Source: a virus. From it: a stretch of DNA of 64,000 nucleotides. A program made the position numbers and the translations under genes. The notes beneath the pieces are model-generated. The model did no database searches. It saw only the letters and a list, made by a program, of their open reading frames with translations, and had not been told where the DNA came from. Below, one piece after another: positions 21,171 to 47,173 of the stretch; the stretch's first letter is position 1, and each line of letters starts with the position of its first letter. The stretch is taken from IMG/VR virus record IMGVR_UViG_3300032272_000002, positions 105,743 to 169,742 of that record. The stretch is one strand, 5' to 3'.

Positions 21171-21845
21171 TTACAGGAACTCAAGCTGGAGATAGTAGGC
21201 AAAGTTAATCTTACGCCCCGCCGCACCAGGAGTAGCACTGAGGATTAAGTGATAATCGTGTACGTGTGCTTCGGCAGCTTGGTCATCCAGTGCTAACTCG
21301 GCACCGCCGCTTGAAATTTCTGACCACGCAGTATTGCCAGTAAAGTTTTCAGTGTCCGCAAGCTGAGCGGCCTGTACTGTAATGCCTGTCGCAAGATCCG
21401 ACACATCGAGCACGTTGTTGTTGGCGTCCAGATTAATAGCACGTAATACAGCCTGCTGGGTAATAACCGCAGTGCCATTGGGCTCTGTGAATCGTGCAAG
21501 TAGTGTGCCAGACTCAGAAGGAATGTTTTCTAGACCAGCAGAAAACGCAACGCCAGATACCTCTGCTAGAGCGGCACCCGTGAACTTTACGTTAATAAAC
21601 GTCCCTAGGTCAGTGCCAAGCTCATCGGTACGGTGACTACGGTCTTGATATTGACCAACAATTACTGGACTACTGGGAGCACCATTTGCACCGAAGAACC
21701 CAAGGCGGTTCGGCGTACCAGCGGCGGCGGCACTGTGAAGGTTTACGATCTCAAGAACCGGAGTAGCACGGCCTCGGCCATATAGGGAGGCAATCGTGTC
21801 ACCAACGGCTCCAGAGCCCGAGAAGAATCTAATTCCACTAACCAT
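21171..21845 (-). CDS. putative virion structural protein
   Basis: G/A/S/T-rich beta-type composition, own candidate late promoter, located at the end of the tail module. Confidence 0.65.
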   Translation of the reverse strand: MVSGIRFFSGSGAVGDTIASLYGRGRATPVLEIVNLHSAAAAGTPNRLGFFGANGAPSSPVIVGQYQDRSHRTDELGTDLGTFINVKFTGAALAEVSGVAFSAGLENIPSESGTLLARFTEPNGTAVITQQAVLRAINLDANNNVLDVSDLATGITVQAAQLADTENFTGNTAWSEISSGGAELALDDQAAEAHVHDYHLILSATPGAAGRKINFAYYLQLEFL

Positions 21846-21930
21846 TATATTTTATTCCTTTTGAAGGAGGAGCTATCCGAGGAATACTACTCAATTCTAG
21901 CTATGGCTGAAATACCAACGCTCTAAAAAG

Positions 21931-21938
21931 TACACTAA
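21931..21938 (-). promoter_or_regulatory. TTAGTGTA candidate late promoter (copy 1)
   Basis: TTAGTG-TACTTT; its TAG is also the stop codon of 21935..24175. Confidence 0.7.
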
Positions 21939-24175
21939 TCAATATCGTGGAGGATACCCTCCCATGGGAATTCCTCAGGGACACCACCGAATGGAATAGA
22001 GGGGGCAGAATGATTTCTGAATCTAGTGCCCTCTACAGCCTCCCAGAAGCTACCTCTCTCGATAATGCGGAAGAGCCACATGTCATCATCGGCTTGAAAG
22101 AACATCCATACACCATCTCTAACATGAGTCGAACCAGTCACTTCAAAGATTTGATGAATAATAACCCTGGACGGTGCGATCTGTAGGAACTTTTCTAGAC
22201 GTGTTGGTTTCGCAGAGTCATGGGTGAATTCACCAGCTTCGTCAGCAGGAGCAGATGGTTCAACACTGATGCTCCATACGCCGATACCGCTTGATGATCC
22301 AGCCCCACCAGTCAATGATAGTAACGGATCTCCCGTTTGAATATTTCCACCGATAGTATACAAAAGCTGTGAACCGTCCCAGTGGCGGCGACGAGCAATA
22401 GCCGGGCCGCTTCCTAAGAAGGTGCCCGTATGAGTATAGCTGCTATTGAATCTATCGATAGTACCATTTTCATTCCATACGTAAATACTACTGCCGTCGT
22501 ATACGCACCCATCAATCCGTGAATAGGCGACCAGATCAGCGTCTTCGCCAATCATGACAAAATTAGCTTCCGTCTCGGCGGCATGGTCTAGTGTTGTTTT
22601 ATTATATCTCTGAAAAAAGACAGAACGATCAAATTCGTCTAACGCATCGTCTGCATCAGGCGTCAATACGGCTCGGAAAATTTGACTGACACGCACAAAC
22701 TGTCCACCAATATCCATAAGTCCCAAATGATAACCGAACGCACCTGGCTGTGGCGGAATCGGACGATACCCAGTGGCCGATGGGCCAGTAGAAGCAATAG
22801 TTAATTCAGCAGGACGATACCATACTGGAGTTCCTGTGTATGGAGAGATCGGATATAAGCCACGCGATAAGACTGTGCCTGGCGGGCTAGATTCACCACT
22901 GCCATGAGGGCCCGTAGTCCAAATGGCGTCGTTCATAACATGAATACCCAACGCAGAGTTTTGATCTAACTCGAAAGCATCTCCACCTGAGTTGCCCCTA
23001 TCAACAAGCTGTTGCCCATCAATTAAATTTGAATTAATGGCGGGAGACAAGTCCGGAGTACCAGACAGCTTACGCACCTGTCCTTGTGGGAACAGGCTAA
23101 CGAAACCAGACGGGATCGCAGTAGTCGGCACGTTAGCTTTTGTGTTATGAACTAATAGGCGGTATAGACCACTTGATTGGACGGTCGGAGTACGGTAGCA
23201 TCTGGCTGAACTGTCATTCCTGCCAACACCATCACGAACAGCTCGTAAGCCTTGGACGTGATTTGTATAATCATTAGTAAACGTTACGGTCTGCTCAAAG
23301 TTACTATCATTGCCTTTGACTAGCTCCATAGTAGTTTCGGGAAGTAGGCAATAACCATCAATCTGTACTACGCCAGATTCTAGGGCGGCAAAATTTGTTT
23401 GTAATCTAAACGAACCCGTCACGGTATCTGACTCGTAACGTGAAGCTAATACGCTTGGGATTGCACCGAGAGTAGTTTGTACAACTGGATACACGGGGCC
23501 AAATCTAAACCTAAGGCCATCAGTTGTGCCAGTGAAATTATTTCCAAAGCGAGGGAATGGAAAAGGATTGAACACTACTTCGCCACAGTCGATATCATAA
23601 ATTACGCCAGAGCCACCCAACCAATGGTCATCTGTTGTGGTGATAAAGTCCCCACCAGTCACATCTTCTAGGGGCGGATGTAAAAAATTGGCCGCGATCA
23701 GGCTAAAGATCTGTAGCGGGAAAAAGGGTTGAGCAATAACGTATCCGCCACTAGGGCTTTCGGGGTATGCCGTTTGTAACCAGGCGATCTTAAAGTCAAT
23801 TTCTCCATATTGGGAGTCGTCCGCATAGAGATCAAACAGGAAGGTGTCAAACTGGAAACGTAACTGTTCAATATTATCGATTGACTCTAACGAATGAACA
23901 TTACCAACATGCCCTTCAAGCGTATCTCCATTAGCCTTGGGCTCAAAGCCAGACGATGGAATATCAGGATGAGTATAAAGCTGATACGTAAGAAAATCTA
24001 GTTGTTCAAAATTCCACTTACGTAACTCGGCATTGTAGACGAACATAGCCTGCTCAATAGTGACACCGGACATACCGATGTTAGGCGTATTAACACCAGG
24101 CCATGCACCCTTGGGAGCACGGATGGGTAACGGGGCGTCAAATTCGTAGGGCATTTGCCCCGATGCAACTACCAT
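21935..24175 (-). CDS. putative tail-tip protein
   Basis: 746 aa, beta-rich, downstream of tape measure and hub-like genes. Confidence 0.65.
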   Translation of the reverse strand: MVVASGQMPYEFDAPLPIRAPKGAWPGVNTPNIGMSGVTIEQAMFVYNAELRKWNFEQLDFLTYQLYTHPDIPSSGFEPKANGDTLEGHVGNVHSLESIDNIEQLRFQFDTFLFDLYADDSQYGEIDFKIAWLQTAYPESPSGGYVIAQPFFPLQIFSLIAANFLHPPLEDVTGGDFITTTDDHWLGGSGVIYDIDCGEVVFNPFPFPRFGNNFTGTTDGLRFRFGPVYPVVQTTLGAIPSVLASRYESDTVTGSFRLQTNFAALESGVVQIDGYCLLPETTMELVKGNDSNFEQTVTFTNDYTNHVQGLRAVRDGVGRNDSSARCYRTPTVQSSGLYRLLVHNTKANVPTTAIPSGFVSLFPQGQVRKLSGTPDLSPAINSNLIDGQQLVDRGNSGGDAFELDQNSALGIHVMNDAIWTTGPHGSGESSPPGTVLSRGLYPISPYTGTPVWYRPAELTIASTGPSATGYRPIPPQPGAFGYHLGLMDIGGQFVRVSQIFRAVLTPDADDALDEFDRSVFFQRYNKTTLDHAAETEANFVMIGEDADLVAYSRIDGCVYDGSSIYVWNENGTIDRFNSSYTHTGTFLGSGPAIARRRHWDGSQLLYTIGGNIQTGDPLLSLTGGAGSSSGIGVWSISVEPSAPADEAGEFTHDSAKPTRLEKFLQIAPSRVIIHQIFEVTGSTHVRDGVWMFFQADDDMWLFRIIERGSFWEAVEGTRFRNHSAPSIPFGGVPEEFPWEGILHDID

Positions 24176-27100
24176 TATCCGAATCTCCGCTTAGCAGGTC
24201 TTACGATCTCGACAAAGCTTACAACATTTGTCTTTCCAAAACCACCACTCGGCGTAGTAGTAGACGTTGATAGGTAACCTCGATCACCCGAAGCGGCTAG
24301 TTCTGGGAATGGAATAGGAACAACATTTGAGAACGTCTGGCCTGATGCAATTGAAAACGAGCCATCTGCATTCAGGCCCAATTCTTTGCAAAATGCTCTG
24401 GCGGTGGCTTCACCAACATTGGACGAGATGGAAACAATCTCTACAGCAGTTACGCCAGCGGCATCTTGAATAGTACCATTCATAAAAATAGTACCATTAG
24501 ATGCACCGGGAGACACGGGAGCATCTCCCTGTGACACAATAGTAGTCTTATCGCCAATTTGAACACTGCCATTCAATACTTCAATGCCGAAGATAGCACG
24601 CTCTGTACCGGCGGCGAGAGCAGACGGATCAACAATCGTCACGTCGTACAGGTTGGAGTCAGCCACGTTAGTACGCTGCACTTCGACAATCGTGCCATTG
24701 GCAAACGCTCGTCCTTGTGTGAAGTAACGCTGAATAGAGTTGCCGCCGGGTAGCTCAAAGTCATCGGTATGATATAAGGCTTCATCTGCTAAGTTTAGGA
24801 AGCCATCAATACAGATAGCACCATCTTGGAAGTCTTGCTGTCCACCGCCAAACCCAAATGATTTAGACGGCTTCAGGTATTGGTGTTGATCTCTACCGCG
24901 ATAACGCTCATCTTCTTCTGTGCCAGGAGTACTAGCGAGAGAAAAGACATTGTTTACTTCAACAATCGTAACGCGAACGGCTCGCTCTTCAGAGTCAAAG
25001 AAGGGCGGCGGTACAAACGAATCACCCGGTACGCTTGGGCTCGACGCAGGCGGCGGATTCTGATTCAAGAGCTGAAGATCAGTAAAGTCAATTGGGTTAA
25101 TAATGCCATTCAGAATAGCACGGACACGCTCTCCGAGCGGTGCTTCTTTTCCAAATTGCGGAAAGTAGCTTTGAATCTTGTAACGGGTAGAGAATCCTGT
25201 CTGACCGAAGCTAATGTTAAGCTCACTGACGCCATGGCTAATCTCGCCGTATTCACCTGAAGTGCCAATACCCTGATCGGCAAACGCATCAAACGACAAG
25301 AGTGGCAAGCCTACTTGCTGAAAGTCGCCATAGCGAGAGAAGCTCTTCGGTACAATCTTGCCTTCGATACGACGCACCGCACGATCAGTCATGATTTGAA
25401 GAGACGTTTGGTTACCATCGGGAGAGAACGCCCACGGCACAAATTGGTCATCAAGCTGTACGTCTTCATCTCGCTCGTAATGGAAGTCTCCCAAGACCCA
25501 CTGACTTGGATACGTCTGACCATAACGCGAACGAGCCTGAACAGGAATAGCCACGCCAGAAAGAGAATCGTAAACATTCAGGATCTTGGCCGGGTCTAAA
25601 ATATCAATCAGACCGGAGCTGCTCAGTTTTGAATTCGTCGTAAGCAGAGTGGCCAAGCTAGAAATCGTATTGTCTCGAACCAGCCCACCAGACGGACCAG
25701 CATTAATTGGCAACTGACACCATAGGGTGCCCTCTGGAAATGCCTCAAAACTGTACAGGTCATCACTACGTGGGTTAATGACTCGCTGACCGACAATCGT
25801 CAAACTGATAGGAATGTAATGCTTACCATCACCAGTCGGGTTGAATGCTGGTGCGTCCTCAGTCCAATTGCCAAAGCTGGCTGGAACATCGTCGCCCTGC
25901 GGGCCATAAATAGTATCTGCTGGTAATACGCAGTGTGCTGCCACGCGGAAGTCATCCGTCACAAAGGGGCTGATAGGACCAAGCCCTCTATTGATCTCAT
26001 AATCTTCTACAAATACGCCACTAGACGCCAACGTGCCAGACGCACTGAGCGTGTAACCCTGAACCTGATTCTCAACGTTGCCCCAGGCCCCTCCTACAAG
26101 ACGATAAAAGCCAGACGCCTCGTTGAAGAGAATCCCCTCAGCGACATAAGATCTGCCATAATGACGAGAAGCATGATTTCTAATACGATTGTAGAATGAT
26201 AAGGTCCAGTTGTTATTCTCATCTCTTCGATTGCTAATAACACGAAGACCAGAACCTTCGTTACCTGTCGCCAAACCGGCCAACGGCATGATGGGATCGA
26301 GACGACTCTGGAACGTTGGGTGCTGAGCGGCTGTCGCTCCTGGGTCGCCCGTCAATCCAAATCCGGGAGGATCATCAGTCGTAGCAGTAGTCTGATATCT
26401 TTTAAAGTAACTCCACGTCTCAATGCCAGCAAGAGCAAACTGTAGCTCCTTCTCAGACGGGATGTACGTACGATAGAAACCATCGGCATCATAGAAGCCA
26501 ATTGAAAGCTGATCCCAGATCTTAGTAAAGACTACGTTGTTATCAAGGCTTGAGGTGTCTAGTCCATCGATTGGACTGATAATATCAGAGTTGATAAAAC
26601 CCTCTTGGTGCCCGCCCAGCACTCTAAAGCGAGTGGGGTCCGACACAACGTCCTGGCCAAAGCCAATCTGCTTCGTCTCGTTCAGGCCGCTCGCACTGCC
26701 AAACTGAGAGACCAAATCTAGGATGTCCGATTCCTCTAGCTCGAACGGCACCTTCTTGTTGATGATGTTGACACGCTGGTTGTCCATGCCCCAGTACCAA
26801 TCATAGCCGGTGTCCTGCAATACCCTGGTCAGGGTTTCATCTAGCTGGCTTAGGTTAAACTGGAAGCGAATCGCATCTACTGTACCATTGATATTCTGTT
26901 CGATCTGAGCAACAGAAGGTAGGATAGAAATCGGCACCGCACAACGACCCTCGTTAAAAGCAAGGTCGATGGCCGAGAGAACCTGGGCATACGTGCAGCC
27001 GAACTGCAAGATTCGCTCGTACTCTTTGATGAGTGGATCAGACGGGTCACCATTGATGTCGGTCAATCCATTTACCTTGCGATAGGCTCGGGCTACAGAG

Positions 27101-27522
27101 ATCACGCCGCTTGGCACGTCCTCTCCTAAGTCTTCGGTGTGGACCTTAACACGACGAAGGCTCTTTCTCTCGTCCTCGACGGTGACTTTAACTACTGTGC
27201 CATTAATACTTGACGTATAGTCTGCATGGGTAATGACGCCACGAACTAGGAAGTCGCCAATAAATACCTCTAACGAATGGCCGATACGTGGTAGTTGTCC
27301 AGAGGCACCGTGGAATTCGCACGCCTCTCCGCATGGTACCCATTCTGTGTTGAAGGAGTGGGGAGTTAGATTAAAACCAAATGTAGAGTTGACAGACGAC
27401 AAGAACGCACAGAGTTGCGATGCGGGTTGCCCTGGGGCAAACTGTCCGGAAGGCCACTCGATACCATTCAGCGGGGCTCCAACGCCGCTAACAACAATGC
27501 CGTCGCTTACTACAATATTCAT
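24175..27522 (-). CDS. putative tail hub / baseplate-like protein
   Basis: 1115 aa; position in the tail module; N-terminal VKVTVED.R hub-like strand pattern. Confidence 0.6.
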   Translation of the reverse strand: MNIVVSDGIVVSGVGAPLNGIEWPSGQFAPGQPASQLCAFLSSVNSTFGFNLTPHSFNTEWVPCGEACEFHGASGQLPRIGHSLEVFIGDFLVRGVITHADYTSSINGTVVKVTVEDERKSLRRVKVHTEDLGEDVPSGVISVARAYRKVNGLTDINGDPSDPLIKEYERILQFGCTYAQVLSAIDLAFNEGRCAVPISILPSVAQIEQNINGTVDAIRFQFNLSQLDETLTRVLQDTGYDWYWGMDNQRVNIINKKVPFELEESDILDLVSQFGSASGLNETKQIGFGQDVVSDPTRFRVLGGHQEGFINSDIISPIDGLDTSSLDNNVVFTKIWDQLSIGFYDADGFYRTYIPSEKELQFALAGIETWSYFKRYQTTATTDDPPGFGLTGDPGATAAQHPTFQSRLDPIMPLAGLATGNEGSGLRVISNRRDENNNWTLSFYNRIRNHASRHYGRSYVAEGILFNEASGFYRLVGGAWGNVENQVQGYTLSASGTLASSGVFVEDYEINRGLGPISPFVTDDFRVAAHCVLPADTIYGPQGDDVPASFGNWTEDAPAFNPTGDGKHYIPISLTIVGQRVINPRSDDLYSFEAFPEGTLWCQLPINAGPSGGLVRDNTISSLATLLTTNSKLSSSGLIDILDPAKILNVYDSLSGVAIPVQARSRYGQTYPSQWVLGDFHYERDEDVQLDDQFVPWAFSPDGNQTSLQIMTDRAVRRIEGKIVPKSFSRYGDFQQVGLPLLSFDAFADQGIGTSGEYGEISHGVSELNISFGQTGFSTRYKIQSYFPQFGKEAPLGERVRAILNGIINPIDFTDLQLLNQNPPPASSPSVPGDSFVPPPFFDSEERAVRVTIVEVNNVFSLASTPGTEEDERYRGRDQHQYLKPSKSFGFGGGQQDFQDGAICIDGFLNLADEALYHTDDFELPGGNSIQRYFTQGRAFANGTIVEVQRTNVADSNLYDVTIVDPSALAAGTERAIFGIEVLNGSVQIGDKTTIVSQGDAPVSPGASNGTIFMNGTIQDAAGVTAVEIVSISSNVGEATARAFCKELGLNADGSFSIASGQTFSNVVPIPFPELAASGDRGYLSTSTTTPSGGFGKTNVVSFVEIVRPAKRRFG

Positions 27523-30500
27523 TGGTCGTGCCCCGACTCTAGTGTGTCACACCATAAGAAGCCTCGCGTATCACGCACGCACCAGACTGGCTTGTAAATA
27601 CCTGGCTGAGTATATGCGTGGGTCGGATTGAAGGCTGTGGTTGTCTGCCCGTCATCAAACAGTAGAAGCTGCGTGGAGACGCCGACGCCAGGCGGTAGTG
27701 AATCTACGTTAGTATCAAAGTCAACGATCAGTGAGGCGTTACCGGAACGAGGTACGCCAGAGATTGTCACGATGACCTCGGGGATGCCAGAGGCCACATT
27801 GATAATGCGTGTGGCTGAATTGTGAATACCGTTAGAGTCAATCGCTTCAAACTTAGCGATGAAAATACCACTGCTGGCGTAGCGATGTTGGGTTGCATAA
27901 CAGCCCGCCCCACTTTCAGCCACACTGACTGTTGGCGATAGGTCACCAAACGTCCAGCGTGTCTGCGTGATAGACTTGCCCTGTAGGCCAGACGCCTTAC
28001 CGATGAAGTACTGGTTGAATGGAGGCACAAGTCCGGTAACGGTATCGCCAGGAATAATGATCCCAACCTCAGGCGGCTGTTCCGACTGAAACACAATCAG
28101 CTTCGCATCGAAGTCAGATGTATTTTCCTGTCTTGCTTCTAAGATAGCATCGAAGTCTTGAGCGGCGATGGCCTGCACGGTATACGAGGTGTCAAATTGT
28201 AGGTTACCCTGAAGGCCACCGAGCATCCAACCACCAATCATTCCAGACGCCTGAATACTACCTTGGATATAGCCGCCCAAGATGCCACTTCCGGGGGTAG
28301 AGCCAACAACGTATCCACCGATCATCCCAGAACCAACATCGCCACCACGCATCAGGCCGCCGAAGACGCCAGAGACAATCTCAGAGCCCGTTAGGTAACC
28401 ACCAATATGGCCAGAGCCAAAATCAAGACCTTGAACATAAGCACCGATATGACCAGTACCAAATACAACACCGGAAACAAAGCCGCCAATAATGCCGCTT
28501 ACTTGAATAGATCCATCTACGAATCCACCAACAATACCTGACCCAGTGTCTTGCCCCTGTAAATAACCAGCAACAATACCAGAACCAGTATCTTGACCAT
28601 GAACATAGCCACCAATAATACCGCTTGTCTCAGTGCCTACTGCGTTGTCAATACCGTTCATCGCAATGTATCTTACTTCGGGCTCTGTTAATACACGAGA
28701 GAAGTAACATACGTCTGTAAATACAGATTCCAAATCTGCCATGTTTGTTTGAAAGAACGTCCAGGGCGTCGTTTCCGACTGTTGATGCGTTTTGAATGTA
28801 ATCATCCTATGTGCTGGATTCAGTGGCACCTGAGGACGAATAGGAAGTCCATTAAATGGATTTTGTAATTGTTCTCCATCTGAAGCGTATGCATTAACTT
28901 TTTGTTGGTCAACAAGTACGCCATTTAAATACATGCGTAATCCACTGCCTTGATTTGGCTGAGGATCATAAACCCAACAATAGTGATCCCAAAAAGCTAC
29001 ACTTGGAGAAACTGACTGCCCCTGAGAGTATGTATTAAATGATCTTAGATCACTTGGCGAGTATGTGAATGGTACAACTTGAGCAGTAATCTGACCAGAC
29101 TTAGAAGTATTATTACCAGTATCTAGGTACATATTACCACCAAGTGAAATGGTCATCTTATATGATTCGTTGTCATCGCTATAGATTGCCCATCCACGAT
29201 CAGGTGAGCGGTCAGTAGCAGTAATAGTACCAGCCGTTGTGCTTGTTAGGGCACCATAGCACATAAATACATCAGCACCATTATTCGGCAAAGCAAAATT
29301 TCGTTTCGCCATTAGGAATCCAACAGAGAACCCCTCGTATGGTGTATCAAACGCTGCTCCAGACACGGCAAAAATAGGCAACTGATCCGTGGAATTAGCA
29401 GTTAGAGCAGAATCACTTTGAAAATGAAAGCCACTACACTGTACGCCCAGGTCTGAGTTGAGGTGAGGGCCGGGAATAGCACGAACAAGTTCTGCCGTTT
29501 CTACGCCCGTTTGTTCATTCTCCCAATAACGCTGAGCAATCGCGTCTAAATGATTAGCCTTAAAGCTTAGGTCCGTTGTGCCAGAGCCACCAGGGCTCTG
29601 AGTCATCTGGCCAACGTTTCCATCAAAACCATTAAATCTCCAGTAGCCTTCTAAATTACTATCGGCAATACTAACTTGTGTTGTTGGAAGCTGTGAAACA
29701 AAACCAGGAATAGATGGATTCTGAATACCACTAACAGCTAGTGCTTCTACTTCGCTCTTTTCGAAAATACCACGCATGATAAAAATTTCACGCATGTAAA
29801 TTTCACCTAAGCCAGCATCATCATCAACCGCCTCAATAATACTATCAGTACCCGCGTAGCCACCAAACTGCGGCAGCCAATTTGCCGTAGTGCCTGGTAA
29901 GGTAATATCTGACCAAAGATCTAAATCAGTAGCAGGACCACGACGAGCATTTACCTTTTCTCCATCAATCCAAAGCGTAATGTCAATAGGAGCCGAACCA
30001 ATAGTATACTGATTAAATGCATATGGCTCCGGAAACTTCATGTGGAATAAAACCTTATTAGGAATTCCATATGATAATGTTCCTGAAATCAGAGGTTCGT
30101 GTCCTGCGGCAGAATCTGTATTACGTGACGCAAAAACAATGGTAACGCCAGATGGTCCCGTCAAAGCATCAGCTCCTGCCGGATCTGGGTCAGTCGCATG
30201 AATGGATGTTAACATCGCATACAATTCACCATCCGAAGTGCCATCGCCCATGTCTCCTATATTGAAAATACGAGAATTGAAAAATCTTTGCTGGAGGTTG
30301 TCTGTTTGATCTGACATTTCAAGTGGCTGAATATTACCACTCGGCGTCACTTCGAATGAAACTAACCACTCGTGCATACTCTGTGGTTGCAATACCGGCG
30401 ACTCTGTAGCGGGACGATAACGGGCCGACAAATTAAACGGCGTATTCCGAACCGTGGCATTATTAGTATTATTAAAACTAGCAAATGTCGAAAAACCCTG

Positions 30501-32603
30501 CGTACAGAAAACGCCAGAAGTGATGCCTAAGTTGCCAAACGTCTGTTGAAGCTCGTCTGGTGCTCGTGTTTCACCAGTAAATAAATCAGTATATGCTGTA
30601 CCATCATTACGAAAAATAGTCTGGTCATTATTGTGCGGGAAAACTCTATCCCATTTAGTTTCACTATGACCTCGAACCAAATGTCCAAGCACAGGAGACA
30701 TAGAGCGTGCTCTATCTTCTGATGCAAACACATCGCCTAAATCAAATGTGTCACAAGGCCAATAACCAAGCAGGCGAGGATCGTGCGGGGTTCTCCATAG
30801 CGACGATGTAGTAATACCGCTTTGAGCCATTGCACGCATTTCATCAGCACGTACTGGTCTGGATAAAACTGCGGTAGCACCAATAGTAGAGCCAACACCG
30901 CCATCTCCAAACACGCCCTTGCTAGTTGCACTGTTTTGCAGATCATCTGTGACGCCATTCATGAACATGAGCGGATATCCACTACCGGCCAATTTATATA
31001 GCTGATCCTGTAAATCAAATTCTAATGTGCCACTTGCTGCTTCATACCCATCAACATAAAGAGCAACACCCATACTAGCTCGATCATAAATAAAACCGTA
31101 ATGAACATCCACGCCACGAGTCATGTCCCTGCCCTCAGCACGCATTAGGACACTATCTTCACCAAAGCCCCTAGGCCATACTTCTGCCGTTACATGGTCA
31201 CCACCATTGAAGGGGAAATAAGATAGGGCAAATCCCATTGAGGCCCCGGTAAGGCTCGTTGTCGTTCCAGAGGAATTAATGGAGGTGCCTACAGAACCCC
31301 AGCTAAACATCATGCACTCATCACGACCATTTGTTACGCCGCGAAGCTGAAAACGACCGGCAATCGTAAAGCCACCAGCGGCTTCTGCAATATCATAGCA
31401 AGCACCACTTGGCATTGCTAATTGATCGGAAGCTATAGAAGCATTAAAGTTTCTACTAGTGTTAAACGGTCCAGGGGCATTAGTCCACATGTTCTGATCG
31501 CCCGGATCTAATTGACTAGTTAAGTTGTAATGATTTGCACTAGCATCTACTGTGATATAATTTTTACCTTCATAATAAGCCACAAGATTAGAGTCAGTAA
31601 TCTCAATAGCTGTATTATGATCGTGTAAACCAATATCATATTGCAGGCCACCGCATTGGTGTAAGTCTAGTACTTCAGAGTCGCTTAAGACACGACGGAA
31701 ATGATAGACACCAGATACTAAATGACCCCAGCCGCTAGCAAACTCATAAGAATCGGTACTAGAAGCTCCATCGGTACCGGCCCCAAGGACAAGAGGATAA
31801 TTACCAACAATAGAACCTAGTACTAAGTCTTGAGTAGTTGTAGCCTGTGTTACTAGATTCCCATCTTTATAGAATTTAATAACATTGAAGTCACTATCAA
31901 CATATTCAAACGAAAATGTTAAGTGAGTATATCGTCCAGCCTCAATGGGCGAACTCATTCTAGCAACTTCGCCAAAAGCAACATCTACGTGTGCGTAACC
32001 CGCCAAAGTATGAGGGCCACCAAATTCAGAATTGTTAAATTGAGCAGCACCAGCAAGCTCACCTGATACGCCAATCCACCAACCGATATCAGCCCCAAAT
32101 TGTCCCATAACAGGATGAACACGAGCATTAAGTTTCTCCCACGGGTCTGTGGCACTGGGGAGCCATCCAGCAGACCCAACAACGTCAGTCCAACCGTCGC
32201 TCTGTGGGTATACCCAAACACCAGCAGTAAAGCCACTACCAGCAATAGTTTTACTTAGCGTATCATTTCTGTGGTGTCGAGAGCCATTACCTAAGACTAA
32301 AACATTAGAAAACGGATCACTCGCACCGGAAACAATTCTATCGTTTTCACCTCGTAACTTTAAACCACGATAAGTAACGCCTGATTCTAGATTGAAAACA
32401 ATCTCTTGACCAGGCCATGGGCTACTCATGGTATCAGTGGCGGGAGTGCCTTGTGAGTCGGCAACATGAACGTGCATATCAAATGATAGTCCACTGGGAT
32501 GACCGGCCCGAGCGGGAGAATAGTTCTTCCACGACGGAGCACCACTAGGCTCATGCAGAGGCCAGAAACCAACCAGGCTACCATCGTCGATTAAGTTAGA
32601 CAT
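27519..32603 (-). CDS. large tail adhesin/fibre: four LamG (ConA-like) domains, 14-aa Gly repeats, two PKD domains
   Basis: Four D..L.G[FY]W-like domain starts, each with LYVDG/MYLNG-type and R.L...EV-type motifs; C-terminal WTFGD...HRYASSG and FDDG...NPTHAYTQPG PKD signatures. Confidence 0.8.
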   Translation of the reverse strand: MSNLIDDGSLVGFWPLHEPSGAPSWKNYSPARAGHPSGLSFDMHVHVADSQGTPATDTMSSPWPGQEIVFNLESGVTYRGLKLRGENDRIVSGASDPFSNVLVLGNGSRHHRNDTLSKTIAGSGFTAGVWVYPQSDGWTDVVGSAGWLPSATDPWEKLNARVHPVMGQFGADIGWWIGVSGELAGAAQFNNSEFGGPHTLAGYAHVDVAFGEVARMSSPIEAGRYTHLTFSFEYVDSDFNVIKFYKDGNLVTQATTTQDLVLGSIVGNYPLVLGAGTDGASSTDSYEFASGWGHLVSGVYHFRRVLSDSEVLDLHQCGGLQYDIGLHDHNTAIEITDSNLVAYYEGKNYITVDASANHYNLTSQLDPGDQNMWTNAPGPFNTSRNFNASIASDQLAMPSGACYDIAEAAGGFTIAGRFQLRGVTNGRDECMMFSWGSVGTSINSSGTTTSLTGASMGFALSYFPFNGGDHVTAEVWPRGFGEDSVLMRAEGRDMTRGVDVHYGFIYDRASMGVALYVDGYEAASGTLEFDLQDQLYKLAGSGYPLMFMNGVTDDLQNSATSKGVFGDGGVGSTIGATAVLSRPVRADEMRAMAQSGITTSSLWRTPHDPRLLGYWPCDTFDLGDVFASEDRARSMSPVLGHLVRGHSETKWDRVFPHNNDQTIFRNDGTAYTDLFTGETRAPDELQQTFGNLGITSGVFCTQGFSTFASFNNTNNATVRNTPFNLSARYRPATESPVLQPQSMHEWLVSFEVTPSGNIQPLEMSDQTDNLQQRFFNSRIFNIGDMGDGTSDGELYAMLTSIHATDPDPAGADALTGPSGVTIVFASRNTDSAAGHEPLISGTLSYGIPNKVLFHMKFPEPYAFNQYTIGSAPIDITLWIDGEKVNARRGPATDLDLWSDITLPGTTANWLPQFGGYAGTDSIIEAVDDDAGLGEIYMREIFIMRGIFEKSEVEALAVSGIQNPSIPGFVSQLPTTQVSIADSNLEGYWRFNGFDGNVGQMTQSPGGSGTTDLSFKANHLDAIAQRYWENEQTGVETAELVRAIPGPHLNSDLGVQCSGFHFQSDSALTANSTDQLPIFAVSGAAFDTPYEGFSVGFLMAKRNFALPNNGADVFMCYGALTSTTAGTITATDRSPDRGWAIYSDDNESYKMTISLGGNMYLDTGNNTSKSGQITAQVVPFTYSPSDLRSFNTYSQGQSVSPSVAFWDHYCWVYDPQPNQGSGLRMYLNGVLVDQQKVNAYASDGEQLQNPFNGLPIRPQVPLNPAHRMITFKTHQQSETTPWTFFQTNMADLESVFTDVCYFSRVLTEPEVRYIAMNGIDNAVGTETSGIIGGYVHGQDTGSGIVAGYLQGQDTGSGIVGGFVDGSIQVSGIIGGFVSGVVFGTGHIGAYVQGLDFGSGHIGGYLTGSEIVSGVFGGLMRGGDVGSGMIGGYVVGSTPGSGILGGYIQGSIQASGMIGGWMLGGLQGNLQFDTSYTVQAIAAQDFDAILEARQENTSDFDAKLIVFQSEQPPEVGIIIPGDTVTGLVPPFNQYFIGKASGLQGKSITQTRWTFGDLSPTVSVAESGAGCYATQHRYASSGIFIAKFEAIDSNGIHNSATRIINVASGIPEVIVTISGVPRSGNASLIVDFDTNVDSLPPGVGVSTQLLLFDDGQTTTAFNPTHAYTQPGIYKPVWCVRDTRGFLWCDTLESGHDQ
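28206..28625 (-). repeat. ten tandem 14-aa (42-nt) degenerate repeats, SG(I/M/H/V)xGG(Y/F)xxGxxxx
   Basis: SGIIGGYVHGQDTG / SGIVAGYLQGQDTG / SGIVGGFVDGSIQV / ... / SGMIGGWMLGGLQG read directly from the translation. Confidence 0.92.
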
Positions 32604-33462: not shown

Positions 33463-34107
33463 TTAAGGTGCTCCGAACTGTAAAAGGTAGTCGTTGTTAT
33501 AAAAATTAAACAACAGACCTAGACGCACGATACCTGAGCCACAGATGCCATACTCGCCCAGCGGGAATCCCCACGGAACAACTAAATTTAAATACACAAA
33601 CTGAGAGGCATTCTGGTCGTCATTACTGATGAGAACCTGGGCCCCATCCTGCCTGATGACATTCGGATTAGCTGGAATACTCGTCGTGAGACGTTCACCC
33701 TCTCCCGAGCCCCACACTGGGTTGGGCTGCCAGGTGCCACTCGCACGAAACTGAAGAAAGGCGGGATCTTGACCAACGCTATTGGCTGGGATAGTAAGTC
33801 CTGTATCGTCTGCGAGATATAGCTTTAAATCAGAAATACCAGAACCAGTGCCCCCGACACCAATCGTAAGGGCAGTAATCTTAGATCCCTTATTATCGGG
33901 TGGTACGCCATTAACGATCTCAAATTTTAACCCTTCGAATACGATGGTTCCTGATGTGCCACCTGGGTTTGCCGACGACGCAGTAGAGCAGCCTAGGGCC
34001 ACCCTCTGTTTGAACGCAAATGAGCCACCCGGAATATGCCGCGTCCCAACAGGACTGGCAACCTCCGCTGTGTCATACTCAAAGATACGTACGTCAGGCT
34101 GTGTCAT
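33463..34107 (-). CDS. putative virion protein, paralogue of 34288..34848
   Basis: Shares PDV...P.G.R.I.GG and D...SQ[FY]V.L...V...P.G.YG..G.G motifs with 34288..34848. Confidence 0.75.
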   Translation of the reverse strand: MTQPDVRIFEYDTAEVASPVGTRHIPGGSFAFKQRVALGCSTASSANPGGTSGTIVFEGLKFEIVNGVPPDNKGSKITALTIGVGGTGSGISDLKLYLADDTGLTIPANSVGQDPAFLQFRASGTWQPNPVWGSGEGERLTTSIPANPNVIRQDGAQVLISNDDQNASQFVYLNLVVPWGFPLGEYGICGSGIVRLGLLFNFYNNDYLLQFGAP

Positions 34108-34301
34108 TCTTTAATTACGTGCTTTTTCTCTAGGTCTAGCTGTAGTGCTTGAGGAACAGGCATCCAACGCCCGGCGAGACGCCGCACGAAAACAACTCGA
34201 TCTCCTACGACCATTGCTCGTACCCCCTTAGGAAGACAGTCTTTGGCCTTCTCTTCACGGGTCTCTTCCACAGACTTTAAATTGATTTTATGAGAAGTCA
34301 T
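34104..34301 (-). CDS. small hypothetical protein
   Basis: Fills the gap between the paralogues; ATGA overlap with the next gene; start estimated at 34301. Confidence 0.55.
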   Translation of the reverse strand: MTSHKINLKSVEETREEKAKDCLPKGVRAMVVGDRVVFVRRLAGRWMPVPQALQLDLEKKHVIKE

Positions 34302-34848
34302 AGAATAACCTATATCTGAAGCTACCGGCTCCAGCTCCACCATATGTACCGACCGGAACATTATTACTTACTTCAACTGCAAGGTGTACATACTGGCTCA
34401 CATCATTGTCGAGCACACCACTCAGCCACGGCTGACCTAACGGGAACTGTGGCTCCTGAATAGTACCAGAAAGATTAGTCGTGTTGGGAACAACGGTCGG
34501 AGTATTGTCCGCAGATGGGGTAAGGGTTAAGCCTGGCTGGAAATGAATGTGCTTTTCTTCTAGGAATCGATATGTGCCAGCACCCCAGGCGGATGTACTA
34601 ATAAGGAAGAACCTCATATTGAAGACGCCGCTGGCGTCACCAAAACTATTCACTCTGGCATACGTCAGCTTAGTATCTGTAATCGCACCAGATCCAGTAG
34701 TGTTGATACTGCCAAAATCTAGCTCTTCGGTTGCGGCAGTACCCAACAGCTTCAAGAAGCCAGCACCGCCACTCAGAATGTCGCGACTTCCCGAAGGGTC
34801 TGTGCTAGGGTCCTGCTGAATCCATTGTACGTCGGGAACGTTAACCAT
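34288..34848 (-). CDS. putative virion protein, paralogue of 33463..34107
   Basis: Shared motifs as above; TAATG coupling with the upstream gene. Confidence 0.75.
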   Translation of the reverse strand: MVNVPDVQWIQQDPSTDPSGSRDILSGGAGFLKLLGTAATEELDFGSINTTGSGAITDTKLTYARVNSFGDASGVFNMRFFLISTSAWGAGTYRFLEEKHIHFQPGLTLTPSADNTPTVVPNTTNLSGTIQEPQFPLGQPWLSGVLDNDVSQYVHLAVEVSNNVPVGTYGGAGAGSFRYRLFYDFS

Positions 34849-36362
34849 TATAGAGACCTCAGACTGATATCAGAGTTGACATCCGGCACGTTCGCCAATT
34901 CAACTGTGAAGGTAAATGATACTGTAGCATCACATGTTAGATCAGTGTCACTAAATGTCTGCTGTAATCCTCCGGGCGGAATTCGAATAGTGATGAAGTT
35001 GGCAGGGTTCGCATGAGCCGTCTTCAATCTGTTTAATTCATCTTGAACGAAGCTGATAGCACGGTTTGTATCCACGGTAGTATTGCCAGTATTTTTAGCC
35101 TGGACAGTACACTGAATAGCAATCGTGCCTTCAGATGTTGTTTTAATATCTTGAATAATAGGGCCGAGCGAACGGAACGGAATAGCTTGGCTCGCCTGCA
35201 CTCGTCCCGCCTCTGTGATCGCTACGCTACACGTTCTATTGGAAATGCCACTCGGTAGGTTAGCTGATGGGTCATCTGTATACGTTACAGAGAAACTGAT
35301 TGTACCACGACACTTGTTCTGTGAAATGGAGAAAGCAGTAGGATTAACTACGTTCAGCCCGCTACCGCTTGGGTTATCCTTGTACTTAAGATATACGCCT
35401 GAAGCGTCAGATGGAAGGAGCGGCTTGATTTGATTGGTAAAGCCCGAGCAGGCTCGATCAAATCCGAAACCACCCTCAAGACCAAAGCCTGGAGTAATCG
35501 TTCTACCAAGTCCTTGAACTGTTCCCTGCACTGTTACTGTGGCTACACCATCCTGGTCTTCATCGAATGACTCCGTACGAGCTGTGAAGTAAAATGGAAC
35601 ACCACTGACAATAGTAAATACCTCAGTGACAGAGTACGTGCCGTTGGCGATATCCGCCACTTCTTCTCTCTGGACAGATACCTCAAAGACTGGGCCGCCT
35701 GCCGGATTAGATGGGTGGACGAGGCCGAAGAGTCCAGACGCATTAGGCTGCACAAAGCATGGAAGCTGAATGGGCAGATTCTCGATGCCCAGCAGAGGCT
35801 TGACCGCAGCAAGGGCCTGCTCAAATTTGTCAGGCTCACCATCCGGCCCCTCGGCAGATACTTGATGACTAACCTCTACAGTGCAGCTTTCACCGTCTTC
35901 TCTGAATGACCACTGATTGCTGAGGCTAGACGTAATTCCGCTGACACCGGACGCGGCAGTCAAATCCTCTAGTTCCACACTATAGTCAATACGGTTGACC
36001 TGGATGTCAGGGGCGATATTGAGTGAGCGAACCTTGGGCGTCAGGCCAGAGCAGATAATCGTATCCTCTGCCAGAGTCTTGTTGCCAGGACCAGCAAGGA
36101 TCAGGAAGTCTTGATCGTCAACTGAGAAAGCCGTGCGAAGCTGTTCTTGCTTCACGTACATCTGCTCATAACTACCGGACGGTACAACTAGAATGCTACC
36201 AGTTAATGAAATAGATGTAACTACGCTAGTTCTAGTGCCAGCATCATTGAACTGAGGCTCCTCGGTAAAATCGACCAGCGGTGCAGGCGTAAGCTGACAT
36301 CCGTTATAGATAACCTTAACGGCAGCTAGATTCGGAGTGTTAGCTTCTGAGAATACGTTCAT
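34848..36362 (-). CDS. putative distal tail protein
   Basis: Immediately downstream of the tape measure gene; beta-rich with internal pseudo-repeats (ISLTG, VSAEG, VTVQGTVQG). Confidence 0.65.
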   Translation of the reverse strand: MNVFSEANTPNLAAVKVIYNGCQLTPAPLVDFTEEPQFNDAGTRTSVVTSISLTGSILVVPSGSYEQMYVKQEQLRTAFSVDDQDFLILAGPGNKTLAEDTIICSGLTPKVRSLNIAPDIQVNRIDYSVELEDLTAASGVSGITSSLSNQWSFREDGESCTVEVSHQVSAEGPDGEPDKFEQALAAVKPLLGIENLPIQLPCFVQPNASGLFGLVHPSNPAGGPVFEVSVQREEVADIANGTYSVTEVFTIVSGVPFYFTARTESFDEDQDGVATVTVQGTVQGLGRTITPGFGLEGGFGFDRACSGFTNQIKPLLPSDASGVYLKYKDNPSGSGLNVVNPTAFSISQNKCRGTISFSVTYTDDPSANLPSGISNRTCSVAITEAGRVQASQAIPFRSLGPIIQDIKTTSEGTIAIQCTVQAKNTGNTTVDTNRAISFVQDELNRLKTAHANPANFITIRIPPGGLQQTFSDTDLTCDATVSFTFTVELANVPDVNSDISLRSL

Positions 36363-36365
36363 TTG

Positions 36366-42835: not shown

Positions 42836-42837
42836 AC

Positions 42838-43383: not shown

Positions 43384-44567
43384 TTTTTAAATACTTTGCT
43401 GTCTGAGCCAAGCAGAATGCGTGACCTCTTCTTGCGTAAATCCTGTTCTTCGATAGTGCCGTGCTTTCCTACTGCATCGTGCTCTTGATTGATATGTGAC
43501 CTTACCTGTGCTGAATTACGGTTATAAACCTCTTTACTAATCCTTGACTTCTCTTCCGCAGTATAGTAGCGGAAGGTACCAAACGGACAGTCGGCGGCGT
43601 GAGGCTTCTTAAGGCCCAAACCAACCGTCTTTTGCGGACCTATTCCACAGACACAAGCTTCACTGAATTCACCATCCAGGATAGCTCCTTGTTCGTGGTG
43701 ATGACCACCCGCCTTAGTACCCTCCATCTTGCCCTCTTTTCTTTCAAGGTCTCGATTTGCTAGCCACTCATCATATTTGTCGTCATCTTGAAAGGTGTCC
43801 TCGCTGGGGCGATCCGGATCCTCATAACCGATATCGTAGACCCTGCTCCAATAAACCAGCATCTTCTGGTTCATGTTCAGATCACCAATAGGACGATCAA
43901 ACAGTCCACTGAGATTCTCTTTATTTAACGTCCAAACCAATCGCCATTCAGCGTTACGAGCAATCTCACGTAGTTCCGGTTCATCCCACAAACTCTCTGT
44001 TAACAGATGGTGGGATAGATATGCGATAAGGTCGGGGTGCTTTCTTGTGGCTTGCAAGAATGCCTCATCGTCTGGCCAGAACAGCGTGCCGTCCACATTG
44101 AGTGCGACACGCATTAAAAGATGAAAGACCGCAACCTCATGAGCTTGATACTCAGAAGTTTGGGTCTTCAAATAATTAGACTTGGCTAAAACTCGGCTGC
44201 GTAATTTTTCAGTTTCTTTTAGCTGTCTTTCTAATAGCTTCTTGCGAGAAGCAAATTTCTGACCAGAGATTTCAGACTCCAAGAACTTAATGTGGTCGTC
44301 TGCTTCCTTTTGAACGCGATCATCTTCTTCGGTCCAATAGTCAGATTCACGGGCAGTTTTAAACACTTCCCGCTCGGTAGGTACTTTAACTTCAATACTC
44401 TTCTGCTCTTCCAGGCGACGGATATATAAGAAGTAATTCCAGTCTTCTACAACTGGATCACGCATAATGACCGTACGCACACCTTCTGGTGCTGGAATCT
44501 CTGCGGGAATCGTGACGTATCTACGATCCCACATTAATAGTCGAAGTTTATCCTGAACCGTTAACAT
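43380..44567 (-). CDS. putative tail assembly chaperone-like protein
   Basis: Follows the tail tube gene; YE.PDRP.E....DD..YDEWL motif. Confidence 0.55.
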   Translation of the reverse strand: MLTVQDKLRLLMWDRRYVTIPAEIPAPEGVRTVIMRDPVVEDWNYFLYIRRLEEQKSIEVKVPTEREVFKTARESDYWTEEDDRVQKEADDHIKFLESEISGQKFASRKKLLERQLKETEKLRSRVLAKSNYLKTQTSEYQAHEVAVFHLLMRVALNVDGTLFWPDDEAFLQATRKHPDLIAYLSHHLLTESLWDEPELREIARNAEWRLVWTLNKENLSGLFDRPIGDLNMNQKMLVYWSRVYDIGYEDPDRPSEDTFQDDDKYDEWLANRDLERKEGKMEGTKAGGHHHEQGAILDGEFSEACVCGIGPQKTVGLGLKKPHAADCPFGTFRYYTAEEKSRISKEVYNRNSAQVRSHINQEHDAVGKHGTIEEQDLRKKRSRILLGSDSKVFKK

Positions 44568-44590
44568 ACCTATACCTAGGGGGAAGAGTG

Positions 44591-44626
44591 ACCCGGCAGA
44601 GGCTTACCCCCTGTCCCCTGCCGGGT
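44591..44626 (-). terminator. GC-rich hairpin after the tail tube gene (no U-tract; stabiliser or attenuator)
   Basis: ACCCGGCAGGGG...CCTCTGCCGGGT 12-bp stem on the minus strand. Confidence 0.55.
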
Positions 44627-44644
44627 TCAGCTCACCAAGGTATT

Positions 44645-46057
44645 TTAGAAGATACCTAGGTCACTCCGTCTGAAGGACGGAGCACCGACGTTGAATCGAC
44701 TGTTACCAGTTTCGAACACCAAAACTCGGTGGTTCGGCTGGAACAAGTCGTGCGAAACGTTGAAGACGTTGAAGGAACTGTAGTTATACGTGATGGTCAT
44801 GTTATCACCACCAGCGTCACCACCGCCCATTTCAACACTCGTCAGACGGTTCGCGTCCCCAAGGTCAACTTGGAGACCGTCACAAGTACGGAGAATGATT
44901 GTGTTAGATTCGGACGTGTTGTCCGGACCACAGTCAATATCCGATGTAGCGTCGATCAGGTCACCTTGAGAGGTGATAACTTCAACCGAGGCAGTAGCTT
45001 CCAGCGGGAAGGCAGGAACCTTCACGAATGGACGCTTGGAGCCAAGCTCGAAGATGTCGTCACGGGCCACAGAGAACGAAACCGTAATCGTCTGAATGTG
45101 CTCTAGGATGTTGTCCGTGTTGGCATCGCCAATTAGCTGGCTAGTGCCAGCAAGCGTACCAGGACCCTGAGCACCGAAGCCGCCATTTACAAAGGCGGAA
45201 TCAATACCAGACGCGGCGAATTCAATCATACCGGGAATGTCTGCCGGTAGAACCGAACGTCGAATGTCGATTTCTTCACGACGCTGGATACCAGAGCCAA
45301 CGATGATAACACCGAAGCGGTCAGTACCACCAGCAAGCTCAGCAGCACCACCTTCGACAAGAGCCGAAGTCAGTCCGTCGTGACCGAAGACACCAGAAGG
45401 CGTACCTTCAGGGGCGTTCGGGTTGTTACCGAGTGCGTCATCAGGCCAGATAACCAGCGGCTCGCCACCGTTACCAGCATTATGACCAGCAGTAACACCA
45501 GATACCGCCTCAATAGCACCCCAAATCTTGTCGTTACCAACCAGGGTGATGTCTTCACTTACGAAGCCATCAATAGGGAAGGTATACGAAATATTCGAGA
45601 CGTACATGCCAGACGCCGTTACAATAGATAACGGTCGGCCAGTAGCACGGAATTGAGTATCCGGATAAATTTGCATAGTGACATCGACCCGATAATTCGC
45701 AGTACGAGCAACGATATCATTCGCCGCAGTCGGATCAGTCACCATAAAGAATAGGGCTTTCGTACCATCGATAGCCTTAGAGAGAGTCATCTCAATATCG
45801 GGCTGACGCTCAGAGTACTCATAGATTTCTACCTGACCAAGCTGGAACGTTTGCTCCAGATTGAAAGTAGTGCTCATACCAGCACTTTGAAGGCCGCGAG
45901 GTACCTCCCACAGTCCACCCACTTGGTCCACACCGGACGCCAGAGTGCCTGTTGAATATTCGAGGGCTCCGAGCGAGGCAACCGTACTCGTTGCCGCAGC
46001 AGCATTATCTTTAATCGCTACCTGCTCAATCGCCCAAAATACACGATTGTTAACCAT
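44645..46057 (-). CDS. major tail tube protein
   Basis: NNRVFWAIEQV, GLQSAGMSTTFNLEQTFQLGQVEIYE, IQTITVS....RDDIFELGSKRPF; strong Shine-Dalgarno and own promoter motif. Confidence 0.75.
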   Translation of the reverse strand: MVNNRVFWAIEQVAIKDNAAAATSTVASLGALEYSTGTLASGVDQVGGLWEVPRGLQSAGMSTTFNLEQTFQLGQVEIYEYSERQPDIEMTLSKAIDGTKALFFMVTDPTAANDIVARTANYRVDVTMQIYPDTQFRATGRPLSIVTASGMYVSNISYTFPIDGFVSEDITLVGNDKIWGAIEAVSGVTAGHNAGNGGEPLVIWPDDALGNNPNAPEGTPSGVFGHDGLTSALVEGGAAELAGGTDRFGVIIVGSGIQRREEIDIRRSVLPADIPGMIEFAASGIDSAFVNGGFGAQGPGTLAGTSQLIGDANTDNILEHIQTITVSFSVARDDIFELGSKRPFVKVPAFPLEATASVEVITSQGDLIDATSDIDCGPDNTSESNTIILRTCDGLQVDLGDANRLTSVEMGGGDAGGDNMTITYNYSSFNVFNVSHDLFQPNHRVLVFETGNSRFNVGAPSFRRSDLGIF

Positions 46058-46137
46058 TTTTTTCCTCCTTGAAAGAAGCTAGCTTAATGAGGATTAAACT
46101 TTGCAAAGAAGAGCCACACTTATAGCTCATGAAATAT

Positions 46138-46145
46138 TACACTAA
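46138..46145 (-). promoter_or_regulatory. TTAGTGTA candidate late promoter (copy 4)
   Basis: TTAGTG-TAATAT upstream of the tail tube gene. Confidence 0.7.
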
Positions 46146-46147
46146 AC

Positions 46148-47173
46148 TTAGAACCCCGTATCACCAATGGTTGGGATAGTAGAAATAGGTCCAAAAACAT
46201 GCCCAAGCGGTGTCGTCGGGGCGTTAAGATAAACAGAAATATTAAAATCTACTACAGCACGTTCGTATTCCTCATCGGGTGGAACATTTTCCGCCGTAAC
46301 TTCATCAATATAAGCTGTATATCGAACTGGAGCACCAGATCCCACGGTCGTAACCAGGACATTATTTCTAAGCATGTCTTGGTACGGCACGTACTCAGGA
46401 GATAAGGTGTTGAAGATCCCAGATAACGGCAGTGGTGCTCGATTAAAATCAAGCATAGGCACAGCCTTTCGCATTTGGGATGTAAGGATATCTACAATAT
46501 TATCTCGCTCCATGTCATCTACTGCCCAGACATGCAAGCGAAGAGTATCCTTAATGATAAGACTTCGGTTACCCAGTTCGAATGCATCAAACGATCTGTC
46601 AGTAACCTCTAGGAATACCGCTGGGAATGGATACAATAATCCAGACGGGTAGACCAAGTTATTTGAAGTAAGCGGGTTGCTCTTGTATTTGTTCTCGATG
46701 ACACTGGTTTGATACTGCTGATTAAACTGGTGTTCGAAAGTAGTTCTTACTTCTCGTGCTCCGAAGTCCGCATTGACCTGGAGAGTGAGCGGTTGTGGAG
46801 AGTTGAAGATGATTCTACCGTTAGTAAAATCGCGAGTGTGCCCAAACTCAGCATCATCAGGAGTGCGAAAAGCACCCTCAATATATAGGCCAGAGGCAAC
46901 AATAGGAGGGTCAATAACCCGCGTACCATCGATTGGTACATCCGCTTCATAAATCCATTCTCTAAATGGTGACTGCCACACTTGGCCATTGCTAATTCCC
47001 CCGAGGATATCATCAGCGTCAGTGTCTGGTAATAGAACACTCATATCGCTGCCGTCGTAAAACTGAGTGCCACTAGTAATGTTTATAAAGGCACCCTCTC
47101 GGAGCATATGCATGTCCAAGAAGAACTTAAAATTCAGCTTCAGTAGTGCTTTGAGCTTGAAGTCTAGTGCCAT
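46148..47173 (-). CDS. putative tail terminator / neck protein
   Basis: PAVFLE...FELGN...LHVWA.DD.ERDNIVDIL pattern; directly upstream of the tail tube gene. Confidence 0.6.
   Translation of the reverse strand: MALDFKLKALLKLNFKFFLDMHMLREGAFINITSGTQFYDGSDMSVLLPDTDADDILGGISNGQVWQSPFREWIYEADVPIDGTRVIDPPIVASGLYIEGAFRTPDDAEFGHTRDFTNGRIIFNSPQPLTLQVNADFGAREVRTTFEHQFNQQYQTSVIENKYKSNPLTSNNLVYPSGLLYPFPAVFLEVTDRSFDAFELGNRSLIIKDTLRLHVWAVDDMERDNIVDILTSQMRKAVPMLDFNRAPLPLSGIFNTLSPEYVPYQDMLRNNVLVTTVGSGAPVRYTAYIDEVTAENVPPDEEYERAVVDFNISVYLNAPTTPLGHVFGPISTIPTIGDTGF

Follow-up and report, generated by a model that had tools for sequence, protein, structure and literature searches.

An internal Ser-Gly motif in the outer virion proteins of an uncultured siphophage family, and its possible role as a glycosylation sequon

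In the papers that we reached, documented glycosylation of bacterial phage virions is confined to C-terminal sites in mycobacteriophages. For phages of the Che8 type, PMC12619734 and PMC12691614, citing Freeman 2023, describe virion glycans made by the phage, including on the tail tube, and placed C-terminally on capsid and tube. Here we consider a different kind of candidate site in the virus record IMGVR_UViG_3300032272_000002 (169,742 bp), of which the final 64 kb constitute the window that we analysed. Its outer virion proteins carry a strong excess of the dipeptide Ser-Gly (SG), which forms the core of a four-residue motif, [Pro/Ala/Val/Gly]-Ser-Gly-hydrophobic, and it is highly probable that this motif serves as a tag for some other molecule that reads it. 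New here are the control-tested conservation of the serine, the depletion of the motif in tape measure proteins, its gradient between clades and the negative result of a search for an enzyme that tracks it.

Like the window phage, the Che8-type phages are tailed and carry glycosyltransferase genes of their own. The acceptor sites differ from the predicted ones of the window phage. The Che8 capsid and tube end in TGS and DGS, whereas those of the window end in GEF and GIF and lack a terminal Ser or Thr. Moreover, S-G-hydrophobic occurs in Che8 at 1.01 times (x) the expected frequency, with no internal excess, whereas the candidate sites of the window are internal and numerous and are missing from the capsid.

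The autotransporter heptosyltransferases Aah and TibC recognise a strand-loop-strand motif (PMC3835316); a sequence consensus is not reported for Aah. They O-glycosylate serines in the cytoplasm, at many sites on beta-rich surface proteins, and their motif resembles the hydrophobic-x-small-S-G-hydrophobic pattern of the window. The window candidates, however, are GT4 and GT2 enzymes, and the profile of the Aah/TibC enzyme (TIGR04414) matched in none of five genomes, in a search where the control was weak in Escherichia coli and the phage's own genome is estimated to be 83% complete. GtfA/GtfB and SdgA/SdgB are neighbouring GT-B enzymes that add O-linked N-acetylglucosamine to serines of Gram-positive adhesins in the cytoplasm. 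Their acceptors are Ser-X repeat tracts, whereas the window sites are dispersed, with a median gap of 34 residues, and the GtfA profile (TIGR02918) yielded no match in the phage's own genome at the cut-off and a single sub-threshold match among the five genomes. The animal proteoglycan xylosyltransferase (GT14) reads a sequon with a Ser-Gly core and acidic flanks. The core is the same in the window, but its flanks are hydrophobic and depleted in Asp, and the GT14 profile (PF02485) was absent from the five genomes, its control matching in two. The profile of the Maf-like flagellin glycosylation enzyme (PF01973), which may miss remote Maf-like genes, was also absent from all five.

A further comparison is with the sugar clusters of the cyanophage P-SSM2 and the jumbo phages (PMC7824862), which share with the window phage nucleotide-sugar enzymes and several glycosyltransferases, two of the genes being similar in sequence. 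Those clusters are read as modifiers of the host surface, and the P-SSM2 baseplate proteins gp25, gp6 and gp7 show SG at just 1.29x. When large aquatic phages carry such clusters, the usual assignment, made without test, is to modification of the host surface or of DNA. An internal motif that is selected for in outer proteins and against in the tape measure provides a specific substrate and a short list of enzymes. We found no paper on a phage Ser-Gly or other internal phage sequon, subscription papers lying outside our coverage.

The Ser-Gly excess and the motif around it

A preliminary description of the window reported SG-rich tail, neck and tip proteins, and its counts (Table 1) were all reproduced, as were the low values for the tape measure, the major capsid protein, DnaE (three) and TerL (two). 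Three SGs that it placed in the first ~65 residues of an adaptor lie at residues 4, 53 and 65 of the 212-aa open reading frame (ORF) at 50055-50693. Within-protein shuffling gave p=0.0005 to 0.05 for eight proteins (Table 1), while the tail tube was not significant alone (6 against 4.1 SG, p=0.22). When all ORFs of 21171-57000 except the tape measure were pooled, with no hand-picking, SG occurred 140 times against 73.7 expected (z=7.7) and ranked top of the 400 dipeptides; the remaining ORFs of the window hold 36 against 43.5 expected. In a set of 14 outward-facing virion proteins (6,543 aa), on which the motif figures below are based, there are 121 SG against 57 expected (2.11x), with Gly-Ser (GS) at 0.98x, Thr-Gly (TG) at 0.83x, Asn-Gly (NG) at 0.96x and Asp-Gly (DG) at 1.02x. 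Shuffling in blocks of 10-40 residues yields 60-64 SG, with a maximum of 85, and the adhesin deprived of its repeat (residues 1-1310) still holds 23 against 12.4. The excess therefore goes beyond local composition and the adhesin repeat, and also beyond codon use and the other reading frames (see below).

Virion proteins of unrelated phages are themselves mildly SG-rich (T5 1.30x, lambda 1.51x, Che8 1.25x and T4 1.11x), and generic turns account for part of the excess, but only part: measured against a control baseline of 1.27x, the window proteins hold 121 SG where 73 are expected (Poisson p ~1e-7). The argument for selection that was originally drawn from the asymmetry between SG and GS is weak when taken alone, because lambda shows it too (SG 1.51x, GS 0.95x).

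The proposal of selection for a modification or recognition motif finds better support in the serine-specific enrichment, the conservation and the tape measure depletion, with the amendment that the motif is longer than SG. Position -1 prefers Pro, Ala, Val or Gly and position +2 prefers Val, Ile or Leu, while acidic flanks are depleted (Asp 4 against 8.0 at -2 and 1 against 8.0 at +2; SG-[DEN] 7 against 9.0). S-G-hydrophobic occurs 70 times against 17.3 expected (4.0x) and T-G-hydrophobic 8 times against 15.3. The full motif is found 49 times against 5.4, a 9.1x excess that is post hoc in that the motif was defined after viewing these same proteins; the pooled control phages (T5, lambda, T4 and Che8) give 20 against 13 (1.5x), and S-G-hydrophobic stands at 1.22x in them. 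The tests on tape measures, orthologues and a second gene block employ sequences other than those that defined the motif. Among 17 modelled sites the serine is predicted to lie in a loop in 12, in a strand in three and in a helix in two, several of the loops having a low predicted local distance difference test score (pLDDT).

The second block comprises 11 SG-rich ORFs at genome positions 76,332-86,229 (L020:832-10729, minus strand), 40 kb from the tail genes. They encode Gly/Ser-rich proteins in which S-G-hydrophobic reaches 2.84x and the Thr version 0.22x, compared with 1.12x for S-G-hydrophobic in the remaining 102 ORFs of at least 150 aa. The seven block ORFs tested showed no Pfam match above threshold, and the block probably encodes accessory fibre or decoration proteins.

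Two known Ser-Gly motifs were considered and rejected. Ala, which precedes Ser-Gly in the 4-methylideneimidazole-5-one (MIO) cofactor, is found at -1 in just 25 of the 121 sites. The flavinylation motif is S/T-G-A-S/T, and is ruled out by the Val, Ile or Leu at +2.

Serine conservation, clades and the tape measure

The window phage belongs to a large family of uncultured aquatic siphophages: a related tail tube is present in 510 IMG/VR contigs, and a cultured relative was looked for and none was found. Comparison of 13 outward proteins with up to seven relatives revealed that the SG serine is kept at a frequency of 0.82 against 0.40 for other serines. The value rises to 0.88 before a hydrophobic residue and is 0.46 where glycine is preceded by Ala or by a polar residue other than serine. 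Across the tape measure, the capsid, the chaperone and a 609-aa head protein, retention of the SG serine is 0.27, compared with 0.30. Thr constitutes 10% of the substitutions at the SG serine and 23% of those at other serines. The rate at which SG serines are lost relative to other serines is 0.30 in the window's clade, compared with 0.81 in T5 relatives, 1.05 in lambda relatives and 0.84-0.91 in clade B (defined below).

Individual families follow the same pattern. An alignment of the 504-aa protein with 120 homologues that share 59-74% identity retains all but one of its 11 SG serines in at least 94% of the rows, against a mean of 0.52 for other serines. Across seven orthologues all five SGs of the 341-aa protein are invariant, as are four of the five SG serines of the 214-aa protein, and the tail tube serines are kept at 0.86-1.0. 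The number of SGs in each protein also changes little as the sequence diverges: adhesin orthologues at 30-45% identity hold 36-44, orthologues of the 746-aa protein at 24-53% identity hold 10-12, and seven orthologues of the 1115-aa protein hold 14-21. The full motif occurs 58 times against 6.1 expected in 24 homologues of the 224-aa protein.

Among 40 relatives the SG excess spans 1.16 to 2.66x and follows the tree. Clade A, which includes the window phage, lies mostly at 1.7-2.7x and clade B mostly at 1.2-1.6x, the two clades being labels from a quick tree with a midpoint root. SG and TG are anticorrelated over 77 loci (rho -0.58). In clade B the SG serines are not specially conserved, so that the motif is dispensable for building homologous tails. 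Four distant relatives (L043, L047, L084 and L102) each encode a single large fibre-like protein with 64-87 SG against 23-28 expected, and in L095 SG followed by Ser or Thr occurs 40 times against 4.8 expected and replaces the hydrophobic form, either as a repeat or as a different motif.

The tape measure provides the negative contrast. In the window it holds five SGs against 9.8 expected and not one full motif. In 22 clade-A tape measures the full motif occurs six times against 22.4 expected, whereas in 15 clade-B tape measures it occurs 31 times against 22.8; the Thr and Ala versions show no depletion in the tape measures of either clade. A small residue stands at -1 in six of 65 S-G-hydrophobic sites in clade A and in 31 of 83 in clade B (Fisher p ~1e-4, which is overstated for related proteins). 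Depletion in the tape measure only where the outer proteins are rich in the motif is a prediction of a diffusible enzyme that reads a sequon, and not of a folding preference.

Glycosyltransferase genes and competing explanations

The window carries nine glycosyltransferase-like genes, with three more upstream, about a dozen in the genome in total. The sugar cluster at one end of the window, which includes the five genes at 629..5350, extends upstream beyond it, where methyl-, sulfo- and nucleotidyltransferase genes are found together with genes resembling those for GDP-mannose dehydratase and GDP-fucose synthase. The gene for the 607-aa GT4 enzyme occurs in 50 of 55 records and in 16 of 16 complete relatives and is a core gene of the family. 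It is the candidate for the initiating enzyme, a role suggested by its co-occurrence with the motif. For neither this enzyme nor the adjoining 434-aa GT4 was a solved structure matched by sequence. Core GT4 orthologues in ten relatives (G007, G015, G020, G021, G024, G029, G035, G044, G050 and G052) occupy frames of 900-1014 aa in which the match is split into pieces, a pattern suggestive of inteins at two or more positions. As regards DNA hypermodification, PF00303 (dCMP hydroxymethylase) and PF00145 (C5-methylase) were absent from five genomes in searches with working controls, leaving neither of these genes to direct the sugars to DNA; the TET profile search had no positive control.

We favour, with moderate confidence, the reading that a phage glycosyltransferase recognises the motif, which would act as an internal sequon for Ser O-glycosylation and so give rise to a glycan coat made by the phage. 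A soluble phage transferase, most plausibly the 607-aa GT4 alone or with the 434-aa GT4, would add the first sugar to the serine hydroxyl in the cytoplasm, on tail, neck, fibre and decoration proteins. The lineage-specific GT2, GT4, methyl- and sulfotransferase genes might then extend and decorate it with sugars derived from GDP-fucose or mannose, and the resulting coat would have roughly two sites in every 100 residues. The tape measure would have been purged of the motif because an extended chain which fills and then leaves the tail channel could not carry sugars. We infer the sugar nature of the modification, the phage origin of the enzyme, which enzyme it is and the function of the coat. 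For the stronger proposition that this family owns a sequon-directed cytoplasmic O-glycosylation system, in which a GT4 reads more than 100 outer-virion sites and the sequon has been selected out of the ejected tape measure, the chances appear to be about even. If true, glycoengineering could profit from a soluble enzyme that reads a serine sequon of four residues, and the motif could identify virion surface proteins from sequence.

Several observations weigh against glycosylation by a phage enzyme. Among the genes tested none distinguishes the two clades, so that no transferase tracks the motif, and the core 607-aa GT4 is also present in clade B, where SG stands at 1.39x; a change of specificity within the core GT4 would fit the clade difference. 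The score of the 434-aa GT4 correlates with SG excess (rho 0.65), to no greater extent than relatedness would give. GT2 presence fails to separate the clades, and the 277-aa GT2 (limited to the seven closest relatives) and the 314-aa gene of the pair beside the packaging genes (limited to six close relatives) mark only the closest clade. The motif follows the tree and may reflect a single event, and since the related genomes are non-independent the p-values are overstated. In clade-A tape measures the Asn version of the motif is scarce too (2 against 12.6). Some invariant sites lie in predicted helix (residues 306 and 321 of the 504-aa protein) or strand (residue 105 of the same protein; tube residues 149 and 283). 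Finally, the major capsid protein is exposed and yet lacks SG, and 18 capsids hold S-G-hydrophobic twice against 8.1 expected. The view that SG is enriched in tail, neck and tip proteins but not in luminal or enzymatic ones is consequently incomplete, the capsid being exposed and not luminal. Genes beside that of the capsid do carry the motif, including the 155-aa ORF, whose cluster shows 28 full motifs against 3.0 expected; its product is possibly a decoration protein that coats the head.

A second explanation retains the tag and changes its reader, which would be a host enzyme, either a glycosyltransferase or one that modifies serine in another way, or else a small protein of the phage docking non-covalently at the motif, the phage transferases serving to remodel the host surface polysaccharide. 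We regard this as unlikely, although enrichment, conservation and depletion fit any reader of serines, and motif strength follows clade, which may in turn follow host. Surface-polysaccharide modification is also the usual view of such clusters, taken for the jumbo phages in PMC7824862, and a 372-aa GT4 of the window and the dehydratase of the genome resemble P-SSM2 genes. That paper, however, bases its view on the patchy occurrence of such genes, and the 607-aa GT4 occurs in every complete relative. A docking partner would neither need the motif in folds as unlike as tube, PKD and LamG domains nor require its removal from the tape measure.

It is improbable that SG is simply structural, with the serine capping a turn or helix and the glycine adopting positive phi in beta-rich proteins, a lineage habit inherited from few ancestral proteins and their repeats. 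The mild excess in the control phages is in accord with such a habit, as are tube residue 149, a core position family-wide, the ten adhesin SGs that are copies of a repeat, and the several sites predicted to lie in regular secondary structure. Asn-Gly and Asp-Gly are the classic turn pairs, and in lambda the SG excess does accompany NG at 1.53x and DG at 1.74x, whereas neither pair is enriched in the window proteins. Furthermore, clade B has homologous tails with SG near the control level, in a PKD domain the position of the SG serine is occupied in solved structures by Val, Lys or Ala, with the same glycine following, and a structural preference fails to explain a depletion limited to clade-A tape measures. 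A cause at the DNA level (a favoured hexamer, codon-pair bias or a restriction-site effect) can be practically dismissed, for although the other five reading frames show 1.2-1.4x, the excess is specific to the coding frame, is limited to virion genes and is spread over 21 distinct hexamers and over serine codons of both boxes (TCN and AGY).

Features of the window and additional observations

Genes of the window are ordered, on the minus strand, as packaging, head, neck, tail, replication (DnaE) and sugar cluster, with TerL, portal, capsid and tape measure assigned by profile search. The tail tube resembles in fold those of P74-26 (Z 19.6, root-mean-square deviation 3.4, 291 aligned residues) and T5 (pb6, Z 14.9), and the phage is therefore long-tailed and non-contractile. 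Features are listed in Table 1, where the 212-aa and 287-aa ORFs lie outside the range 21171-47173 covered by the preliminary description.

Table 1. Virion and glycosyltransferase genes of the window
Feature	Coordinates	Strand	Remarks
Five glycosyltransferases: GT2 339 aa, GT2 277 aa, two GT4 372 aa, GT-A-like 232 aa	629..5350	-	
434-aa GT4-type glycosyltransferase	6243..7547	-	PF00534; adjoins core gene; in 45/55 records
607-aa GT4-type glycosyltransferase	7538..9361	-	PF00534; E-x7-E at residues 373-381
224-aa putative virion protein	21171..21845	-	6 SG, p=0.003
746-aa tail-tip region protein	21935..24175	-	13 SG, 9 GS, p=0.003; role suggested by gene position
1115-aa tail-tip region protein	24175..27522	-	16 SG, 4 GS, p=0.028; role suggested by gene position
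1694-aa adhesin-like protein	27519..32603	-	40 SG, p=0.0005; LamG, PKD domains
214-aa putative tail protein	33463..34107	-	5 SG, GS equally frequent, p=0.05
186-aa putative tail protein	34288..34848	-	6 SG, p=0.006; paralogue of 214-aa protein, same cluster
504-aa distal-tail-like protein, repeated tube-fold domains	34848..36362	-	11 SG, 3 GS, p=0.002
Tape measure protein, 1704 aa	36366..41480	-	5 SG; PHROG tape measure matches
Tail tube protein, 470 aa, two tube domains	44645..46057	-	6 SG, 2 GS; hydrophobic residue after all 6
341-aa protein upstream of tube, tail-completion position	46148..47173	-	5 SG, p=0.0015
778-aa ORF among neck genes	47719-50055	-	Missing at same position in close relatives
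Two neck or head-associated ORFs, 212 aa and 287 aa	50055..51826	-	4 SG each; roles suggested by gene position
Major capsid protein	51919..52950	-	0 SG; PHROG major head E=0.0034, phage G gp27 match, alignment
155-aa ORF before capsid gene	52965..53432	-	2 invariant SG
Two glycosyltransferase-like genes just upstream of packaging genes	62261..63989	-	PF00535, PF13524

The adhesin matches PF13385, PF18911 and PF00801, and its residues 1327-1453 form a 14-residue repeat in which each unit has SG followed by hydrophobic residues and glycines. The model of the 504-aa protein (pLDDT 82) gave only weak Dit or tube matches in a fold search (E>=2.6e-3), and the 224-aa protein has no PHROG or Pfam match. 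The gene of the 341-aa protein is present in 40 of 40 family genomes. The 778-aa ORF shows no SG excess (4 against 4.5 expected) and no Pfam match, and is possibly a recent arrival or a non-surface protein.

A Hydrogenophaga host was considered and set aside. The sole match is L146, a 158-kb contig in a Hydrogenophaga metagenome-assembled genome which is probably a whole mis-binned phage and at best a weak lead; the contig carries a capsid gene of 86% identity. At least 23 small unrelated ORFs across the genome share a C-terminal tag, F-x-L/I-x-G-A-L-stop; two of them lie in the window at 5347-5757 and 5754-6140, both on the minus strand, and 21 others are distributed across the genome.

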